The notes under the pieces: generated by a model | The model's database searches: none | Seen by the model: the letters and a program-made list of their open reading frames with translations, nothing else | Told to the model about the DNA's origin: nothing | Part shown: piece by piece, positions 7,501 to 46,093 of the stretch | Numbering within the stretch: position 1 is the first letter of the stretch | Layout of the letters: each line of letters opens with the position of its first letter | Program-made: the position numbers and the translations under genes | NCBI GenBank assembly: GCA_036388475.1 | Contig: DASVRT010000020.1 | Span: 18,412-82,411, forward strand | Direction: 5' to 3' | DNA length: 64,000 nt | Source: Pyrinomonadaceae bacterium | GTDB taxonomy: Bacteria; Acidobacteriota; Blastocatellia; Pyrinomonadales; Pyrinomonadaceae

Positions 7501-8799
7501 TTGAAAACCACAGCAGATTTACTGAAACCTGAAGCCAAAGATTTTATCTGGGCGGGCGGCATCGAAGACACATTCGTTCCGCAGACGCGCAACGGGCATC
7601 GCGCGCTGGACGAATACGAATTGATGGGGCATTACGAGCATTGGCGCGAAGACCTCGCGCTGGCGCGCGAGCTTGGCTTGCACGCGCTACGCTGGGGCGT
7701 GCCGTGGTATAAGGTCGAGCCGGAAGAGGGCAAATTCGATTGGAGATGGACGGATGAGGTCATCCCGTATCTGGTCGAAGATTTGAAAATCACGCCCGTT
7801 CTGGATTTGATGCATTACGGCACTCCGTTCTGGCTGAAAAAAGAATTTGCCAACAAGGATTACCCGGAGTTTGTCGCCCGTTACGCCGCCGAGTTTGCCG
7901 CCAGATACAAAGGTTTGATCAAATGGTACACGCCTCTGAACGAGCCGATTATCAACGCTTTGATGTGCGGAATGCGCGGGCTTTGGGCGCCTTATCTGAA
8001 AAAGGAACAGGGCTACATCCGGATAATGATGCAGCTGGCGAAAGGCATTATCCGCACGGTCAATGTCTTGAAGGAAATCGACCCCGAGGCGGTGATGGTT
8101 CACGTCGAAGCGACCGGCATGACGCGCACCGTGCGCGAAGATTTGTCCGTGCTCGCCAATGAAGAAACGCATCGCGGCTATCTCTGCTACGATTTGATTT
8201 CGGGGCGCATCACGCACGACCACCTGCTTTTTTCGTGGCTGGTCAGAAACGGCGCTTCGCTTAACGATTTGGACGAGATTCAGACGAATAAAATTCCGCT
8301 CGACGTGGTCGGGATGAATTTTTACCCGCAATGGTCAACCAGACAGATTTATCTGGATAAACGCGGGCGCATCGCTTTTCGCGACATCGAGCCGGAAGGC
8401 AACGGGTTTGTCGATTTGATTCGGCATTTTCACGAGCGTTACCAAGTGCCGATAATGATTACCGAAACCAGCGCCGTCGGGACGGATGAAATCCGCGAGC
8501 GCTGGCTCGAATCTTCCGTGGCGATGATAAAAAACCTGCGCGCCGGCGGCGTTCCGGTCATCGGTTACACGTGGTTTCCGCTGTTTACGATGATTGACTG
8601 GCGCTATCGTTTTTCGCACGAGCCGCTGGAAAATTTTTATCTCGAACTCGGGCTTTATAAATTAAATCGCGAAGGAAAAGGCAAGCGCTGGCTGGAAACG
8701 CCGCTGGTTGAAAAGTATAAAGGCTACATTAAATCTCCGGCTGAAGCGGTCGGAAATTTGATCGTCAAACAGGAAGAAACCGCCGAAGTATTCAGGTAA
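7501..8799 (+). CDS. GH1-like (clan GH-A) beta-glycosidase; paralog of the gene at 1..1266
   Basis: 432 aa, TTG start. FIWAGGIEDTF...WREDLALARELGLHALRWGVPW...LNEPIINA...MITETSAVG. A sigma70-like box pair lies upstream (TTGCCA ... TAAGAT). Confidence 0.75.
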   Translation: MKTTADLLKPEAKDFIWAGGIEDTFVPQTRNGHRALDEYELMGHYEHWREDLALARELGLHALRWGVPWYKVEPEEGKFDWRWTDEVIPYLVEDLKITPVLDLMHYGTPFWLKKEFANKDYPEFVARYAAEFAARYKGLIKWYTPLNEPIINALMCGMRGLWAPYLKKEQGYIRIMMQLAKGIIRTVNVLKEIDPEAVMVHVEATGMTRTVREDLSVLANEETHRGYLCYDLISGRITHDHLLFSWLVRNGASLNDLDEIQTNKIPLDVVGMNFYPQWSTRQIYLDKRGRIAFRDIEPEGNGFVDLIRHFHERYQVPIMITETSAVGTDEIRERWLESSVAMIKNLRAGGVPVIGYTWFPLFTMIDWRYRFSHEPLENFYLELGLYKLNREGKGKRWLETPLVEKYKGYIKSPAEAVGNLIVKQEETAEVFR

Positions 8800-8845
8800 A
8801 AGTGAAAAGTGAAAATTAATTTGATTTTCACTTTTCACTTTTCGT
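8798..8845. terminator. Hairpin terminator built from tandem GTGAAAA heptamers (family A)
   Basis: AAAAGTGAAAAGTGAAAA - loop - TTTCACTTTTCACTTTT, placed between the convergent stops at 8799 and 8855. Confidence 0.6.
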
Positions 8846-8854
8846 TTTTCACTT

Positions 8855-9286
8855 TTATACGCGTGCGTCATCGGTTCTGACATCAGTGCGCGTTAAAAAG
8901 CCTCCAATCAAAAAAACCAGACCGAGCAGAACATGAACGATATGGTCCATCGTGCCCAATTCCAAAGCGCCGGGCAAAACGTGGAGCATATGGGTGTTGG
9001 TGCCGCCGTCGGTCAGATTCGCCGGCAAGCCCGTCGCCGTGCCGGAGTTGAACAAAAATCCCGCCACGCCGAGCAGCAAATAAACCGCACCAAACGCAAG
9101 ACAGAATAATCTGGCGGCGGAAAGCGAGCCTTTCAAGCCCAGATAAAGCGCGACCGCGCCTGAAATCAGATGAATCAGGTTATGCGTCATACTCAGATGC
9201 GTGCCCATAAAATTATCGGAAATAAAGCCGACTAGACCAACCAGGATAAAAACTATGCCCAATATGGTAGCTATTGTTTTTGCCAT
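8855..9286 (-). CDS. DUF4383-like small membrane protein
   Basis: 143 aa with four predicted TM segments; THNLIHLISGAVALYLG pattern. Confidence 0.65.
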   Translation of the reverse strand: MAKTIATILGIVFILVGLVGFISDNFMGTHLSMTHNLIHLISGAVALYLGLKGSLSAARLFCLAFGAVYLLLGVAGFLFNSGTATGLPANLTDGGTNTHMLHVLPGALELGTMDHIVHVLLGLVFLIGGFLTRTDVRTDDARV

Positions 9287-9505: not shown

Positions 9506-9623
9506 AGAGAAGTGAGAAGTGAGAACTGAGAGCTGAGAAGTTTTAAACGACGCGCCCTAAACTCTAATCAGTAAATTGAAAATTCAACACTTCTCAATTC
9601 TCAGTTCTCACTTTTCACTTTCC
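9506..9623. terminator. Long hairpin (arms ~33 bp, loop ~49 nt) built from (G/C)TGAGAA heptamers (family A)
   Basis: AGAGAAGTGAGAAGTGAGAACTGAGAGCTGAGAAG at 9506-9540 pairs with CTTCTCAATTCTCAGTTCTCACTTTTCACTTTCC at 9590-9623. It overlaps the aminopeptidase stop at 9615. Confidence 0.5.
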
Positions 9624-27450: not shown

Positions 27451-27522
27451 AATCGGGCGCAGTTACATAAAAGCCGCGCCGCACGCAATAAATGCAGCGT
27501 ATTAAGACGAAGAATCGGGTTT

Positions 27523-27793
27523 CAAGCCTGATTCTTTAGTTTTTCAACCTGAACGATTAGCTTCCGGACCTAAACGATTAGGTTCGAGACCTAATCCATT
27601 AGCCTTGAAACGTATCCGATTAGGTTCCGGACCTAATCGTTTAGGTCAAAACGTGCTCCGACCAGCTTTCAAGCCTAATCCATTAGGTTCAAGACCTAAT
27701 TCTTTAGGTTCGAGACCTAAAGCTTTAGCCTTTGAACCTAAACGGGTGATGATTTGACCTAATCGCGGCACGATTGAACCTAAAGCGAGCGGC
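27523..27793. repeat. Array of ~13 tandem 21-bp units, each carrying an ACCTAA half-site; several form full palindromes ACCTAA-N4-TTAGGT
   Basis: ACCTAA occurs at 27568, 27588, 27631, (27673), 27694, 27715, 27736, 27757 and 27777, a 20-21 bp periodicity. Perfect units include GACCTAATCGTTTAGGTC and GGACCTAAACGATTAGGTTC. Confidence 0.7.
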
Positions 27794-31178: not shown

Positions 31179-32822
31179 ATGTTTGAACTTCCTATTATCG
31201 TAATCGCAGTCGTTGTCGCGGTGGTCGTCTGCCTGCTCATCGCGATGATGCTTTTAAGCAAAAACTACATCAAAGTTTCGCCCAATCAGGCGGCGGTTAT
31301 TTCCGGTCGCCGCCGCCGGCTGACGGACGGCTCGACCGTCGGCTACCGGCAGGTGCGCGGCGGCGCAACGCTCGTCATTCCGTTTCTGGAAAAGGTCGAA
31401 TTTCTCGATTTAAACGTCATCACCGTGCCGCTCGCCACATCGCGCGCCTACACTTCGCAAGGCGTTCCGGTTTCGGTCAAAGCCGTCGCCAACGTCAAAA
31501 TTAAGGGCGACGACGAATCTTTACGGGCGGCGGCGGAACGCTTTCTGGGAATGCCGAAAGACCAGTTTCACGGGCTGATTTTTCAGACGCTCGAAGGTCA
31601 CTTGCGGGCAATTCTCGGAACTCTGACCGTCGAAGAAATCAACAACGACCGCCAGAGCTTCGCGCAGAAACTGACTTCGGAAGCGGCGGGCGATTTGGAA
31701 AAAATGGGCATCGGGCTCGACGCGCTGACGATTCAGGAAATCTCCGACGACGAAGGTTATCTCGACGCGCTCGGCAAACGCCGGACGGCGGAAGTGAAGC
31801 GCGACGCCGAAATCGGGCAGGCGGAAGCCAATCGCGACTCGAAAATCAAAGCGTCTTTAGCCTTGCAGGAAGGCGAAAAAGTTCGATTGAATACCGAAGC
31901 GTTAATCGCGCAATCGAACCGCGAAACCGAGATTCAAAAAGCGCAGGTCTCGGCGGAAATCCAGAAAGAACGCGCCAAAGCCAATCAAGCCGGACCGCTC
32001 GCGGAAGCAAAAGCACAGCAAGAGGTCGTGGCGGAAGAAGTCCGCATCGAAAGAATTCGCACGCAGGAACAAATCGCTGTGCAGGAACAGGAAGTTCTGC
32101 GCAAGGAAAAAGAACTCGAAGCGACGGTTGTCAAACAAGCCGAAGCCGACCGGCGCGCCGCCGTTCTGCGCGCCCAGGGCGCACAGGAATCGGCGATTTT
32201 AGAAGCCGAAGGTCGCAAACAAGCGCAAATCGCGCAAGCCGAAGCCGAAGCGCAGAAATTGCAGAAAGAAGGTCAGGGACGAGCGTCGGCAATCGAAGCC
32301 GAAGGTCGCGCCGAAGCCGAAAAAATCCGCGCGCTCGGTTTAGCCGAAGCCGAAAAATTACAGGCGCAGGGTTTGGCACACGCGAAAGCCACCGAAGCGC
32401 AGGGTTTGGCGGAAGCGACCGCCATCAAGGAAAAAGCCGCCGCCTGGCGCGAATTTAACGACGCCGCGCGCCTTCAGACGATTCTCGAAAAACTGCCTTC
32501 GATTATCGAAGCGTCCGCGCCCGTCTTCCAGGCAGTCGCCGAGCCGCTCGGTAAAATCGACAAGATTGTGATGATTGACCAGGGCGGCAACGGCAATGGT
32601 AACGGAAACGGTTCGAGCGGAATCAATCGTTTCGCGCAAACCGCGCCGACGATGATTTTTTCCTTGCTGCAACAGCTTCAGGCGCTCGGTTTAAATGTGC
32701 CGGACGTGCTGGCGCAGCTCGGCGTCAACACGGACGGCAAATTGACGAACGGCGCGGAAAAAACCGAAATCAAAATTGTCGAAGAGATAAAATCGGTCGA
32801 AGACGGCAACGGCGCAAAGTAA
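31179..32822 (+). CDS. Flotillin-like SPFH/band-7 protein
   Basis: N-terminal TM, SPFH core, and a long Ala/Glu-rich coiled coil (AEAEAQKLQKEG...). Confidence 0.85.
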   Translation: MFELPIIVIAVVVAVVVCLLIAMMLLSKNYIKVSPNQAAVISGRRRRLTDGSTVGYRQVRGGATLVIPFLEKVEFLDLNVITVPLATSRAYTSQGVPVSVKAVANVKIKGDDESLRAAAERFLGMPKDQFHGLIFQTLEGHLRAILGTLTVEEINNDRQSFAQKLTSEAAGDLEKMGIGLDALTIQEISDDEGYLDALGKRRTAEVKRDAEIGQAEANRDSKIKASLALQEGEKVRLNTEALIAQSNRETEIQKAQVSAEIQKERAKANQAGPLAEAKAQQEVVAEEVRIERIRTQEQIAVQEQEVLRKEKELEATVVKQAEADRRAAVLRAQGAQESAILEAEGRKQAQIAQAEAEAQKLQKEGQGRASAIEAEGRAEAEKIRALGLAEAEKLQAQGLAHAKATEAQGLAEATAIKEKAAAWREFNDAARLQTILEKLPSIIEASAPVFQAVAEPLGKIDKIVMIDQGGNGNGNGNGSSGINRFAQTAPTMIFSLLQQLQALGLNVPDVLAQLGVNTDGKLTNGAEKTEIKIVEEIKSVEDGNGAK

Positions 32823-34430: not shown

Positions 34431-34490
34431 GATGAACGCGGAACGCGGAATTGCAGTTTTTGCGTATCGAATTCCGCGTTCCGCGTTCCG
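34431..34490. terminator. Bidirectional hairpin built from tandem GAACGCG heptamers (family C)
   Basis: GATGAACGCGGAACGCGGAATT - loop - AATTCCGCGTTCCGCGTTCATC, between convergent stops. Confidence 0.6.
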
Positions 34491-34508
34491 CGTTCATCGT
34501 TCTCCGCT

Positions 34509-41698: not shown

Positions 41699-41869
41699 AT
41701 AAAAACGCGGAAACCTCACGTTTCCGTGCCGGTTGTACGCCTTCAGGCGCGCGTGAACCGACAGGAGGCGTGCGAAGAGCGCGCCGATTCGATTCCGATG
41801 CTTTTTTTGCCGGCTATATCTGTCCGCCGGCTTCCGCCTTTTTGCCTTTCCGAGAAATTTCCATTTACC

Positions 41870-41939: not shown

Positions 41940-43415
41940 ATGCAAAGCAATTATCTTATTAAATTCGCAGTTTTAATTATCTGTTTAATTTCTTCAAACG
42001 CCGTCTATGCCGACGTTAAAATCAAGACGCGGCAGACGGTCGGCGGGCAGACCTCCGAAAATACGACCTATATCAAAGGCAAACGCCAGCGCTCGGAGAT
42101 GATGGGCGGAAAAATGGTTAGCATTACGCAGTGCGATTTGCGCCGCGACGTGCAGATTATGCCGGACGGCAAAGTTTATATGGTCAACCCGTTTGACGGC
42201 GGCGCGGCGGCGCAGGCGAACGAAAACGTGTCGCAAACGCAGACGACGACCAAGCTCGAAACCGGCGGAACGATTACGATGACCTACACGACCAAAGACA
42301 CCGGCGAGCGCAAACAGATGTTCGGCTACACGGCGAAACATTTGATTATTACGATGGAATCGGTCGCTTCCGCCGATGCCTGTATGAAAAACAACAGCAA
42401 GATGGAGATGGACGGCTGGTATATCGACGCCGCCTGGTATTTTCAATGCGACCGCGGCTATGCGGGCGGCTACACGCCGAAAAGCCAGAAAGCCGGCTGT
42501 CAGGACAAATACGTGATGAAGCAGGTCGGCACGGCGAACCGCGGTTATCCGGTCTGGGAAAAAATGACGATGTACGATGCAAGCGGCAAGGAAATGATGA
42601 CGTCGCTCAACGAAGTCGTCGAGCTTTCGCAAGCCACTCTGGAAGCTTCGCTGTTCGACATTCCGCAGGGCTACCGCGAAGTTAAAGATTCGTCCGAGCT
42701 GTATGCGAGTATGTCGAGCCAATCGAGCAGCGGTCAGTCGAGCAACGGCAGCACGACGAGCGGCGGCAATAACGGCAATTCCAATAGTTCTTCCAATTCC
42801 GGTATGAGCCGGAACGTGCAGAATATGTCGAAATCCGAACCGGACATTTCGACGACGGTCGGCGCGAAAAAAGAAGGTACTGTCCGCATCGGCTTGGCGG
42901 GCGTGAAAACCGGCGCGGTCGGCGAAGGCTTGAAGGCGGCGGAGCTTGCCGGAGCGATTCGGAGCACGCTCGGCGAATATCTGAAAGGCACGAAGATTGA
43001 GCTGGTTCAAATCGAAGCCAGCCTCGCGACGGCAATCGAAGCCGAAGCCAAGCAGAAGGAATGCGATTACGTTCTTTACGCGCAGGTTTCGCACAAAAAA
43101 GGCGGCGGCGGTTTCGGAATGTTCTCGAAAATCGCGCCCGCCATCGGCAACATCGTGCCGGTCGCAGGAATCGGAAGCAGAAGCGGACAAATCGCCGGAC
43201 AGGTTGCCAACACCACGATTTACACGGCGGCAAACGCGGCGGGCAACGTCAAATCGAAAGACGAATTGACGCTCGAAATCAAGCTTAATTCAACCGGCGG
43301 CGCGACCTCTCTCGCCAGGCAGTATAAAACGAAAGCCAAATCCGACGGCGAAGACATCATTTCCCCGCTCGTCGAACAGGCGGCGACCGCGATTCTGGAA
43401 ACGGTCGGCAAATAA
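41940..43415 (+). CDS. Secreted protein with a C-terminal module related to the 'AVLPF' (TolB-N/LpoB-like) modules of the giant kinases
   Basis: Signal peptide MQSNYLIKFAVLIICLISSNAVYA; Ser/Asn/Gly-rich linker. The C-terminus ...KSKDELTLEIKLNSTGGATSLARQYKTKAKSDGEDIISPLVEQAATAILE is paralogous to the C-terminus of the 45470 protein. Confidence 0.55.
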   Translation: MQSNYLIKFAVLIICLISSNAVYADVKIKTRQTVGGQTSENTTYIKGKRQRSEMMGGKMVSITQCDLRRDVQIMPDGKVYMVNPFDGGAAAQANENVSQTQTTTKLETGGTITMTYTTKDTGERKQMFGYTAKHLIITMESVASADACMKNNSKMEMDGWYIDAAWYFQCDRGYAGGYTPKSQKAGCQDKYVMKQVGTANRGYPVWEKMTMYDASGKEMMTSLNEVVELSQATLEASLFDIPQGYREVKDSSELYASMSSQSSSGQSSNGSTTSGGNNGNSNSSSNSGMSRNVQNMSKSEPDISTTVGAKKEGTVRIGLAGVKTGAVGEGLKAAELAGAIRSTLGEYLKGTKIELVQIEASLATAIEAEAKQKECDYVLYAQVSHKKGGGGFGMFSKIAPAIGNIVPVAGIGSRSGQIAGQVANTTIYTAANAAGNVKSKDELTLEIKLNSTGGATSLARQYKTKAKSDGEDIISPLVEQAATAILETVGK

Positions 43416-43550
43416 ATCAGAAAAGTGTCATCATCCGAACCTCCTTTTTGAGACGGTCTTCGCTCGACCGTCTCTTTTTTTATTGGCGGCAGGTTTCGGG
43501 CGAAAATGTATGAAAAGCGAACGAAATCTGCGGTTTTATAGAGGACAAAT

Positions 43551-43762
43551 GGCGTTTGGCAACTGCCGAAGCGCTTCCGGCAATTGCCAAACCGATTCCG
43601 GCAACCTCCGGAAAGCGTCCGGCAACTGCCGAATTCGGTCCGGCAGCTTCCAAACGCCGCTCGGCTAATTCCAAATCTCATACGGCAGCTTCCGGAAGCC
43701 TTCCGGCAACTGCCGAACTGCGTCCGGCTTCTTCCGAACTGCGTCCGGCTTTCGCCGAAACT
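43551..43762. repeat. Array of ~10 tandem 21-bp units (consensus TCCGGCAACTGCCGAAnTGCG), each with a short internal palindrome
   Basis: Units start at approximately 43553, 43574, 43595, 43617, 43638, 43660, 43683, 43701, 43722 and 43743. The array is translated as a spurious QLPNxVR repeat in ORF 43584. Confidence 0.7.
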
Positions 43763-43822
43763 TATTTATCCGAAGCCATTTGAAGGCAGGCAGCCGGAAA
43801 CGGGCGAATTATATATTTTTTT

Positions 43823-43857
43823 TGATACTTTTCGTATCGCCTTTACGCTATTACCAG
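43823..43857 (+). promoter_or_regulatory. Candidate promoter, instance e: TGATAC-N17-CGCTATTAC
   Basis: TGATAC at 43823-43828; CGCTATTACCAG at 43846-43857. ATG at 43908. Confidence 0.4.
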
Positions 43858-43907
43858 AGAAGACTATTCTTCAATCTTTTATTTATTCCATAAGTGAGCA
43901 AGCAATT

Positions 43908-44300
43908 ATGTCTATTATTCGAAAAATTACCTGTTATTCATTACTGATTTTATCTATTTTGTCCGCCGTGCCGACTTTGGCGACGACGGAAGACCGCGTG
44001 ACAATCGACCGCGACATCGTTTTCCGGCGCGGCGCGATTTCCGCTTCCCTGCGCGGCAGAATCAATCGCGGCACGACGCATTTATACCGCATTCGCGCCC
44101 GCGCCGGGCAGGAAATGGCAATCGTCCTGAAAACGGGCGAGCAGACTTCCGCGACGCTCTACGCGCCGACCGCGGGCATTGTCGAAGGCGCGGACGGCAT
44201 CCGCCAAACGCTCGTCGAACTGCCCGAAACCGGCGAATACCTGATTCAAATCGGCACCGATGCCGCCGCTAATTACACGCTCGAAGTAACGATTAATTAA
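43908..44300 (+). CDS. Small secreted PPC-like beta-sandwich protein
   Basis: Signal peptide MSIIRKITCYSLLILSILSAVPTLA. Homologous to the C-terminal domain of the 1684 protein. The ORF-track start at 43584 is an extension created by translating the tandem repeat. Confidence 0.6.
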   Translation: MSIIRKITCYSLLILSILSAVPTLATTEDRVTIDRDIVFRRGAISASLRGRINRGTTHLYRIRARAGQEMAIVLKTGEQTSATLYAPTAGIVEGADGIRQTLVELPETGEYLIQIGTDAAANYTLEVTIN

Positions 44301-44317
44301 AAAGGAGAACTGCAATT

Positions 44318-45361
44318 ATGACTACGCAAACACACGCCGCCGCGCTCGCGCCGGAAATGCCGACCGAAGCCGTTTTGGGGCAAATCCTGATGGGCGCTTT
44401 TACGTCGCAAGCCGTCTATGTCGCCGCCAAGCTCGGCATCGCCGATTTGTTGAAAGATAATCCGCGCCCGGTCGCGGCATTAGCCGCCGAAACAAATACC
44501 GACGCCGACGCGCTTTACCGCGTTCTGCGCGCGCTGGCGAGCATCGGCATTTTTGCCGAAACCGCGCCGAAAACTTTCGCGCTCACGCCGTTTGCCGAGC
44601 CGCTTTTGAGCGACCGCCCGGGCAGTATGCGCGAGATGGCAATCTGGATTGGCGAAGAAGCGCACTGGCGCGTTTACGGCGAGATGCTTTACAGCGTCCG
44701 AACGGGCAAACCCGCCTGGGAACGCGTCCACGGGCAGGAAGCTTTCCCGTACCTGTTTGAAACCGACCGCGCGCTGGGCGATATTTTCAACCGCGCGATG
44801 ACCAGCTTTTCGTCGAGCGTCGCGCCGGCTATCGCGCAGGCTTATGATACGTCGGAAGCGAAAACGCTGGTCGATATCGCCGGCGGTCACGGGCTTTTGC
44901 TTTCGGCATTTTTGAAAACGAATCCCGATTTAAAAGGCGTTTTGTTCGACGTGCCGACGGTTATCGAAGACGCGGGCGCGCTGCTCGAAAGCGAAGGCGT
45001 CGCCGAAAGAGTCGAAGCCGTGACGGGCGATTTTTTCCAAAACGTTCCGGCGGGCGGCGACCTTTATATGATGAAACACATCATTCACGATTGGGACGAC
45101 GCGCGCGCGCTCGCCATCCTGAAAAACATTCATTCGGCGATGAACGAAAACGGCAGGGTTTTAATCGTCGAGATGGTCGTCAAAGAAGCGAACGAGCCGG
45201 ATTTCAGCAAGATTATGGATTTGGAAATGCTCGTCACGCCCGGCGGCGTCGAGCGCACGGCGGAAGAATACCGCCAGCTGCTGGCGCAAGCCGGATTTCG
45301 CCTGACGCGCATCATCCCGACCGCTTCGCCATATAGCATTGTCGAAGCCGTTAAAGCTTAA
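44318..45361 (+). CDS. SAM-dependent O-methyltransferase (class I, family 2, with N-terminal dimerisation domain)
   Basis: LVDIAGGHGLLL...VLFDVPTVI...GDFF..VPAGGDLYMMKHIIHDWDD. It lies 17 nt after the 43908 gene, so the two are probably co-transcribed. Confidence 0.85.
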   Translation: MTTQTHAAALAPEMPTEAVLGQILMGAFTSQAVYVAAKLGIADLLKDNPRPVAALAAETNTDADALYRVLRALASIGIFAETAPKTFALTPFAEPLLSDRPGSMREMAIWIGEEAHWRVYGEMLYSVRTGKPAWERVHGQEAFPYLFETDRALGDIFNRAMTSFSSSVAPAIAQAYDTSEAKTLVDIAGGHGLLLSAFLKTNPDLKGVLFDVPTVIEDAGALLESEGVAERVEAVTGDFFQNVPAGGDLYMMKHIIHDWDDARALAILKNIHSAMNENGRVLIVEMVVKEANEPDFSKIMDLEMLVTPGGVERTAEEYRQLLAQAGFRLTRIIPTASPYSIVEAVKA

Positions 45362-45363
45362 CT

Positions 45364-45410
45364 GAAAGCTGAGAACTGAGAATCGTTTTCAATTCTCAGT
45401 TCTCAGCTTT
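45364..45410 (+). terminator. Hairpin terminator (family A, CTGAGAA heptamers)
   Basis: AAAGCTGAGAACTGAGAAT-cgttttc-AATTCTCAGTTCTCAGCTTT. Confidence 0.6.
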
Positions 45411-45469: not shown

Positions 45470-46093
45470 GTGACCATCAAATCAACGGCAATTACAATTT
45501 TTATCGCTCTGATGATAATTTTGACCGCGAACGCCGCGTTTGCACAGGAGCCTGTCGCGCCGACCAATCCCGAATTTCAAACTGAAGCGCCGGTGCCTGA
45601 CAATTCGATGCCGGTCAGAATCGGCATTGCTCTGCCGAAAGCGAATTTTTTCGAGGACGGCGTGAACAGTTTTCAAATAGCGGCGAGCATCCGCGAAATT
45701 ATCGGCAATCACTTTAACGGAAGCGGCATCGAGATAATCGCGCTGGAGGCTCGCCTGCCGCCCGCGATTGCCGTCGAAGCCAGAGAAAAAAGTTGTTTTT
45801 ATATTTTGCAAACCGTCGTTTTGAGAAAACGAAGCGGCGCGAAGCTTAATTCAATGACGCCGGCGACAAGCATTAACGGAGGCGCGCAGACGGTGCTTTA
45901 CAAGGCGGCGGATTTGGCTTCGACGACGAAATCGAAAGACGAATTCACTTTCGAATACAGCTTGATTTCCACCGAGGACAATGCGGTTAAAGCTAAAAAT
46001 TCTTTCAAAACAAAGGCGAAAGCCGACGGCGAAGACGTTCTTTCGTCGATGTTGGAAAATATGTCGAAGGCGGTTCTGGCTGCGGCAAAGTAA
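45470..46093 (+). CDS. Secreted protein with an 'AVLPF'/LpoB-like module
   Basis: GTG start; signal peptide TIKSTAITIFIALMIILTANAAFA. VRIGIALPKANFFEDGVNSFQIAASIREIIG... C-terminus paralogous to that of the 41940 protein. Confidence 0.55.
   Translation: MTIKSTAITIFIALMIILTANAAFAQEPVAPTNPEFQTEAPVPDNSMPVRIGIALPKANFFEDGVNSFQIAASIREIIGNHFNGSGIEIIALEARLPPAIAVEAREKSCFYILQTVVLRKRSGAKLNSMTPATSINGGAQTVLYKAADLASTTKSKDEFTFEYSLISTEDNAVKAKNSFKTKAKADGEDVLSSMLENMSKAVLAAAK

Follow-up and report, generated by a model that had tools for sequence, protein, structure and literature searches.

A 64,000-nt stretch of a Pyrinomonadaceae MAG (a soil Acidobacterium), hereafter called the window, carries ten tandem 21-bp units between the gene of a secreted DUF4412-like protein and a promoter for a 130-aa signal-peptide protein and an O-methyltransferase. 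Does this array serve the promoter that it adjoins, as the first-pass annotation had proposed, or does it belong to the end of the gene before it? The annotation had the place, the period, the copy number of about ten and the distance of about 60 bp to the promoter right: laid out in register, the units follow each other head to tail with zero indels, and 59 bp separate the array end from the TTGATA at 43822 (Table 1). TRF reported positions 43558-43749 with period 21, 9.1 copies and 66% matches. A 16-mer core of the unit, searched with up to 3 mismatches, had 8 matches in the 64-kb window, every one within the array, thus the unit does not occur elsewhere in the window; shuffles gave a mean of 1.1 and none reached 8. 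Five independent assemblies have contigs with 99.5-100% identity to the window. All five contain the same ten units base for base, therefore an assembly artefact is excluded. The array is a real, non-coding repeat array.

Table 1. Features of the window around the studied array and its sister array (position 1 is the first base of the window)
Feature	Position	Strand	Description and basis
Upstream gene	41940..43415	+	491-aa secreted DUF4412-like protein; Pfam DUF4412 at 1.3e-6
Intrinsic terminator of the DUF4412-like gene	43450..43484	+	Terminator scan: 9-bp stem, 6 G-C pairs, T7 run
Left flank ("leader") of the studied array	43486..43553	+	Co-occurs only with the array (window, L010, L011, L186)
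C>G bubble	43531..43808	+	Continuous, 278 nt, coincident with the studied array; 78-nt sliding window, maximum %C-%G 16.7
Studied array	43554..43763	+	Ten 21-bp units, consensus gTCCGGCAaCTgCCGAAccgC, two dyad centres 10.5 bp apart
Spacer, poorly conserved	43764..43821	+	18-45% identity between relatives, with indels
Promoter e	43822..43860	+	TTGATACTTTTCG...CGCTATTACCAGAG; kept in all relatives having the 130-aa gene, with or without the array
Downstream pair	43908..45361	+	130-aa signal-peptide protein 43908-44300; O-methyltransferase 44318-45361
Sister array	27516..27790	+	13 units of 21 bp (TAGgTTcaaGACCTAAtCgaT) between groEL and a ClpB-like gene

The units are old and diverged (about 64% pairwise identity) and were not homogenised. 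Each had been said to hold a CGGCA-NN-TGCCG or GGCAATTGCC palindrome; the exact form is present in four of the ten (units 1, 2, 4 and 8), the other six lack it and read GGCAGCTTCC, GGCTTCTTCC or similar. Over 29 units from three genomes, mismatches to the consensus were distributed very unevenly (chi-square p = 3e-9), and T2, G5, G6, C7, T11, C13, C14 and A17 were kept in at least 25 units. The autocorrelation at lag 7 is 0.35 and a period-7 GC/AT harmonic dominates (0.35-0.47). Several candidate structures were rejected. A heptamer sub-repeat at the sequence level was not significant, lag 7 being the top class in only 2 of 6 families. The second harmonic, expected for a 10.5-bp GC/AT alternation as in gyrase- or histone-like-wrapped DNA, was not enriched (0.107 vs a null of 0.100). 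A sigma-54 -24/-12 reading of TGGCA...TGCC, judged directly from the sequence, misfits in its spacing. The contiguous units, with only 5 variable bases between cores, lack the unique spacers of a CRISPR array. The neighbours are chromosomal housekeeping and secreted-protein genes, unlike the rep or par genes and the A+T-rich unwinding element expected beside a plasmid iteron or partition centromere, and BLAST returned no plasmid match for the array. No Rfam family reached its gathering threshold on the array; the best sub-threshold hits were generic miRNA-like hairpins (29.5 bits vs 74).

The DUF4412-like protein has more than 2300 homologues, and those named by source are all labelled Pyrinomonadaceae or Acidobacteria. 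Its gene ends in an intrinsic terminator, a hairpin at 43450-43474 followed by a T-run, and both parts are kept in every aligned relative. The adjoining leader closes with a terminal half-unit at the array side; its substitution pattern, read from the sequence, is not codon-like. Fourfold degenerate sites are 74-80% identical among the window, L010 and L011, thus divergence is moderate and not saturated. The leader (65 bp) has an identity of 83-88%, little above these sites, and its conservation appears not remarkable; an argument from saturated neutral sites to strong purifying selection was rejected on the same figures. On the minus strand the leader (43495-43520) reads TTCATACATTTTCGCCCG, near to a promoter box TTGATACTTTTCGCCCG that sits right of the array in relatives, thus the array in L010 and L011 is bracketed by an inverted repeat of about 18 bp. 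Beyond the array, the spacer ends in an A/T-rich tract (43807-43821). Promoter e is a real motif-bearing promoter, as annotated: yTGATACyTTT, followed after about 12-17 nt by CGCTTTA or CGCTATTA, occurs on the plus strand at 41869, 43822, 51720, 54265 and 54899, each time intergenic and directly upstream of a gene, and it is conserved in relatives. The five genes include those of the DUF4412-like and the 130-aa protein; judged by their shared motif they look like members of a single regulon, which an alternative sigma factor may control. The ATG at 43908 opens the 130-aa protein and is called identically in all five assemblies. Pfam had no match for this protein, so its label as a PPC protein stays unconfirmed. 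The neighbours of the array include no adjoining regulator gene. Downstream of the methyltransferase lies a 207-aa protein (45470-46093) paralogous to the C-terminal portion of the DUF4412-like protein, with 25-36% identity in most relatives; therefore the array-bearing spacer is flanked by related genes.

The orthologous spacer was compared across many relatives, and the terminator and the promoter with its 5'UTR are conserved throughout. A homologous array is present in the window, L010, L011 and L186 with 10, 10, 9 and 10 units. The closest relative, L012 (130-aa protein 93% identical), retains only a remnant of one to two units, derived from the last unit of the array. In L008 and L009 an inverted-repeat element takes its place, and L014 has a short spacer of about 60 bp and no array. 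Promoter e and the 5'UTR are intact in all of these relatives; therefore the promoter is independent of the array, and the array is dispensable for it. Copy number, which the annotation had proposed to compare between strains, did not change in the five near-identical strains, while between species whole units were gained or lost and the array was lost completely (10, 10, 10, 9, a remnant of one to two units, 0). Unrelated 21-bp arrays occupy the same spacer in L185 and L187, and further unrelated ones lie just downstream of the homologous DUF4412-like gene in L064 and L067, where no homologue of the 130-aa protein or of the methyltransferase was found adjoining that gene. A MITE-like element with a 26-bp inverted repeat at its ends (TGTAGGGGCAGGTCTTGTGCCTGCCC ... 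GGGCAGGCACAAGACCTGCCCCTACA) and a length of about 140-190 bp was observed in the orthologous spacer of both L008 (11575-11780) and L187 (2515-2655).

In register, the arrays of the window, L010 and L011 are 61-70% identical. A unit-by-unit orthology of window and L010 was rejected: in the unit identity matrix aligned units were no closer than non-aligned ones (diagonal vs off-diagonal, p = 0.14), therefore internal units were gained and lost, and orthology is confined to the edge units. The close pair L010 and L186 is orthologous unit for unit; 190 of 210 array bases are the same (90.5%) with zero indels, compared with 83-84% at 4-fold sites. Eleven of the 20 changes fall on positions 3, 4, 15 and 16 and turn CCGG into CTGG or CCAG, and none occurred in 60 sites at the invariant motif positions. 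In L186 (4606-4815, against L010 11593-11802) CCGG cores were converted in this way at 7 sites, all C-to-T transitions at CpG on either strand, as would be expected if CCGG were cytosine-methylated in this lineage.

The period recurs at other loci. In a TRF census of 80 Pyrinomonadaceae loci and the window (about 1.3 Mb), periods clustered at 7 (45 arrays), 14 (17), 15 (12) and 21 bp (25). Among the long periodic regions of this set together with L008, L010 and L011, 20 had lag 21, 11 lag 42 and 10 lag 14; each other lag from 15 to 30 had at most three. The strict 21-bp architecture that the studied array was said to share with the one at 27.5 kb was borne out. The first unit of that sister array forms part of the groEL terminator hairpin, and its homologue in L011 has an 84-bp (4-unit) deletion; a CIRCE or CtsR-like reading of this array beside groEL and clpB was set aside, the likeness being limited to few bases. 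A third array is present in relatives but not in the window; it and the sister array are both conserved, each at its own locus, with differences confined to indels of whole units. Every array tested has two dyad centres per unit, 10.5 bp apart. The unit sequence differs at each locus, and the 21-bp arrays that different relatives carry in one spacer can be unrelated to each other. Metagenomes scanned for a two-unit pattern gave 93 stretches, about 50 of them long 21-bp arrays, mostly non-coding and several from low-GC contigs. Arrays of 21 bp are common in Pyrinomonadaceae and also occur in other taxa. Some stretches of the same pattern lie inside long ORFs (L148 4757-5606, L156 10-943, L132 1528-1909, L140 3492-3992) and are probably coding heptad repeats, therefore 21-bp arrays are a mixed population. 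No description of 21-bp intergenic arrays in Acidobacteria or in bacteria generally was found in the literature.

These arrays have a preferred place. With ORF-based spacer contexts at about 18 independent loci, a gene 3' end was found at 4-150 bp from all Pyrinomonadaceae 21-bp arrays examined and from most metagenome arrays; the spacers were tandem or convergent, and divergent at one locus. Convergent spacers, which have no promoter, hold the third array in L008, L010 and L011 and arrays in L024 and L121. In the window the convergent spacer that corresponds to the third array has a heptamer-built hairpin instead. Inverted pairs of 7-bp tandem repeats, which form long hairpins, were observed right after stop codons at window positions 45359-45410, 34434-34502, 8798-8856 and 9507-9620; an example is (GAACTGA)3 ... 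(TCTCAGT)2 at the 3' end of the methyltransferase gene. These terminator-like stems are built of heptamer repeats, and the stem at 34434 lies in the convergent spacer that in relatives has the 21-bp array. A flotillin-like gene has an internal 33-bp direct repeat (window 32310-32374) in 2 copies with 81% matches, also present in L006. Low-GC (32-37%) metagenome contigs (L097 3397-3657, L183 6648-6927, L107, L138, L176, L180) carry 8-13 units of TCGATTCCGGCACCTTCCAAA, and a 455-aa gene stops 13-27 bp ahead of them. The sense strand of these arrays has 38% C and 13% G, and along it 20-22 YC dimers follow one another in an evenly spaced chain.

In tandem or 3'-abutting spacers, the strand that is sense for the flanking genes has more C than G in 15 of 17 independent array families (p = 0.0024). 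Ordinary tandem spacers (n = 215) show no polarity, with a baseline of 51% and a mean skew of -0.013. The skew is weak in L010 (-0.03) and L050 (-0.04), and families L114 and L101 point in the opposite direction. A sense-strand polarity of the 7-bp arrays was also considered and is absent (10 vs 11). The studied array has 74 C and 51 G. According to published descriptions, a rut site has its C regularly spaced in a C>G bubble that measures 78 nt or more, and it contains four or more YC dimers separated by linkers of 9-13 nt (PMC6407284; PMC6144790). The bubble of the array, on the non-template strand, is far longer than this, and its YC dimers are dense (18.6 per 100 nt vs 11.8 in the window). 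A chain of 8 YC dimers with N9-13 linkers runs along the sense strand, compared with 3 on the antisense strand and 6.2 in composition shuffles. The remaining trait, an RNA that is G-poor and little structured, was not found, since the sense strand folds with z = -3.8, and GGC and CGG, negative descriptors for Rho termination (PMC6144790), are twice as frequent in the array as in the window background. Arrays in L067, L097 and L183 have about 38-40% C, about 13-15% G and YC chains of 13-22; the sense RNA is unstructured in L067 (z = -0.6) and weakly structured in L097 (z = -2.5).

Position after a gene, lack of translation, a long C>G bubble and even YC spacing match the descriptions of rut sites, and for this match a Rho-loading reading is ranked first. 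Tentatively, we regard the array as a polar boundary element placed where the upstream transcription unit ends; of the forms it could take, a periodic back-up terminator on which Rho loads is the most plausible. It would belong, as one of the class of 21-bp-periodic arrays, to the end of the DUF4412-like transcription unit and not to promoter e, an assignment that we hold as possible and provisional. Transcripts that run past the intrinsic terminator would present about 210-280 nt of RNA that is not translated, is skewed to C over G and has YC dimers at even distances. Arrays of the class carry these pyrimidine-C dimers every 10-11 nt or so on the sense strand. Rho would load on the array RNA and halt RNA polymerase ahead of promoter e. 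The array would then act as back-up terminator or insulator that separates two independently controlled genes; its transcription, the engagement of Rho and an effect on expression are what we infer. The place directly behind the terminator of the upstream gene speaks for Rho loading, as do the polarity of the array families, the slow change of the array relative to 4-fold sites between L010 and L186, the uneven conservation along the unit and a sense RNA that folds much less well than the antisense RNA. Against it stand the weak or opposite skew of some arrays, the strong intrinsic terminator already ahead of the array and the loss of the array in L012, L008 and L014; most C>G bubbles, a frequent feature of genomes, do not terminate transcription (PMC6144790). 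Confidence is low because the sense RNA is structured, GGC and CGG are frequent and the 21-nt period and the dyads are left unexplained. Rho biology has no requirement for exactly 21 nt or for dyad symmetry, and both features lie outside what the mechanism accounts for; they may originate from tandem duplication in a lineage rich in 7-bp repeats. That 21-nt-periodic C-rich arrays after stop codons form a cross-phylum class of hard-wired Rho-loading platforms is a more speculative and rather unlikely extension. With two YC sites per unit, a stretch of three units (63 nt) would be enough to occupy all six primary sites of a hexamer. If such platforms existed, Rho-dependent terminators in these lineages would be sequence-defined and predictable, and the 7/14/21-bp bias of Pyrinomonadaceae would be a dedicated tandem-duplication route to gene-end signals.

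A tolerated minisatellite without function, which we consider doubtful but serious, would have arisen when slippage duplicated a short unit in tandem, palindromic or derived from a terminator, in a lineage that tends to form 7n-bp repeats. It would persist in permissive 3' spacers, with the palindrome arms kept alike by template-switch (quasipalindrome) correction. The census with its many 7-, 14- and 21-bp arrays and the dominant period-7 harmonic are in line with such an origin, and so is the unit of the sister array within the groEL terminator hairpin. The internal units turned over between window and L010, the in-register identity of the arrays lies below that of the 4-fold sites, and close relatives lost or replaced the array with no visible consequence. 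However, the C>G polarity is opposite to that of transcription-associated deamination and ordinary spacers have none; between L010 and L186 the array changed more slowly than 4-fold sites and stayed free of indels. The strong heterogeneity between unit positions and the constant copy number of the five strains likewise speak against a functionless repeat.

Phased protein-binding sites on double-stranded DNA are unlikely, although several features fit them. In this case T..GGC...T.CC..A, repeated every 21 bp or two helical turns, would be bound by a dimeric or filament-forming protein that coats about 200 bp in an architectural, silencing or insulating role, which keeps the binding sites proposed in the annotation but not their part as activator. 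The phase is strict, since indels comprise whole units only (21 bp in the studied array of L011, 84 bp in the sister array), and each tested array has its two dyad centres per unit. Base identity was kept and not pairing: no compensatory changes were found across the unit dyad, paired cells being 71.8% vs 72.3% in shuffles. Conservation is uneven along the unit, and the gap behind a strong terminator should stay largely untranscribed. But the unit differs per locus and unrelated arrays sit in the same spacer, so that many proteins, or none, would be needed, and no regulator gene adjoins the array. The sense-strand polarity is not predicted by a site on the DNA level. Neither the lack of a 10.5-bp harmonic nor the free decay of CCGG cores to CTGG or CCAG in L186 agrees with bound DNA.

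An improbable explanation is a structured RNA element, a chain of hairpins or one long hairpin like REP/BIME in a sense or antisense transcript, which would stabilise the 3' end, block exonucleases or be processed. Both strands fold better than expected: the studied array has an MFE of -91.7 kcal/mol in sense and -132.7 kcal/mol in antisense direction (z = -3.8 and -9.2), and the sister array has z values of -8.8 and -7.7. Inverted pairs of 21-bp arrays with arms of at least 100 bp exist in L008, L024 and L187, and the heptamer-built hairpin of the window stands where relatives have the third array. Against such an element, covariation is absent, the better-folding strand is the antisense strand, which has no evident promoter, the arrays of L067 and L097 are nearly without sense structure, and no Rfam family came near its threshold. 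A hairpin stabiliser on the sense strand predicts a polarity opposite to that observed, which counts against it.

The role as upstream activating region for promoter e, which the first-pass annotation had put forward, is very unlikely. The array does end near the promoter box, and arrays in L050, L064, L067 and L014 also precede a TGATACTTT box. Yet activator sites on the DNA should be conserved along with their promoter and show no strand polarity, and both predictions fail: L012, L008 and L014 have an intact promoter but not the array, and the arrays are polar relative to the flanking genes. Four of the five motif copies in the window have no array beside them, and sister arrays lie in convergent spacers.

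An ORF from 43584 passes through the array in the frame VRQLPNx, which the annotation had rightly called an artefact. This frame (+0) is open in the window, where it is in frame with the ATG at 43908, and in L010, but has 4 stops in L011; the frame of the only conserved upstream ATG meets TAG in the window and TGA in L011. No frame is stop-free in all three orthologous arrays, and no reading frame is conserved between orthologues. Public gene calls (JGI, ENA) place hypothetical proteins of 75 aa over window 43556-43783 (+) and of 102 aa over L010 11545-11853; these are artefacts and spurious protein-database entries. With Pfam silent on the array ORFs and periods of 7 and 14 bp in the same array class, translated heptads (VRQLPNx or another frame), whether they form a small protein of their own or extend the 130-aa protein at its N-terminus, are scarcely credible.

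Little is known of gene-end signals in bacteria other than the model species, and a sequence does not yet reveal whether it is a Rho-dependent terminator. Repeats whose period (21 nt), place just after genes and polarity (a C-rich sense strand with YC dimers at even distances) are all fixed offer a concrete object for testing. Two cautions follow for annotation: gene callers turn such arrays into spurious small proteins, now in public databases, and a tandem array that adjoins a promoter need not belong to it. If the arrays are functionless, the strict 7n period still points to an unusual repeat-generating process in Acidobacteriota.

Several known systems resemble the array in part. Phased operator and centromere arrays, such as the paired 18-bp ARG boxes 21 bp apart from centre to centre, the iterons of parC bound by ParR and the heptad arrays of the omega protein, consist of 2-10 near-identical sites for one known protein encoded nearby. 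Like them, the studied array repeats short sites, dyad or direct, in phase with the helix and beside a promoter, but it has a locus-specific sequence, a strand polarity and no partner gene. The ToxI-like repeats of type III toxin-antitoxin systems, about 34-40 nt long, precede an endoribonuclease toxin gene, whereas the unit here has 21 nt; the 130-aa gene downstream encodes a signal peptide, has its own promoter and no Pfam match, and sister arrays stand without a downstream gene. REP/BIME elements of enterobacteria and pseudomonads are likewise imperfect palindromes outside genes. They cluster at the 3' ends of genes, where the spacer is tandem or convergent, are dispensable and may be present in one relative and absent from another; the studied array is extragenic, palindromic and close to a gene 3' end. 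REP elements, however, form genome-wide families of one consensus of about 35 bp in alternating orientation, spread by a RAYT transposase; the 21-bp arrays have a locus-specific unit arranged head to tail, and the 64-kb window holds no dispersed copies of the unit of the studied array. Intergenic minisatellites (VNTR, e.g., mycobacterial MIRU) also run head to tail between genes with units of tens of bp and gain or lose whole units. In contrast to these, the studied array has no copy-number polymorphism in near-identical strains, its units are diverged and strand-polar, and the period of 21 is kept across unrelated loci. Heptanucleotide repeats (cyanobacterial STRR; TAACTGA, PMC4679880) are lineage-wide, intergenic, changed by unit increments and of unknown function, as are the 21-bp arrays, and Pyrinomonadaceae have many 7-bp arrays and a period-7 GC/AT harmonic in the 21-bp unit. 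TAACTGA repeats of Beggiatoaceae, Cyanobacteria and Bacteroidetes are one sequence located mostly just upstream of start codons (PMC4679880), whereas the 21-bp arrays have many unit sequences and lie just downstream of stop codons. Known rut sites have a loose definition and are not tandem repeats, while the studied array is a strict 21-nt repeat, partly self-complementary and rich in GGC and CGG. What it has in common with rut sites is an untranslated position behind a gene, a C>G bubble well beyond 78 nt, C or YC spaced regularly with linkers of about 9 nt and a polarity that follows transcription.
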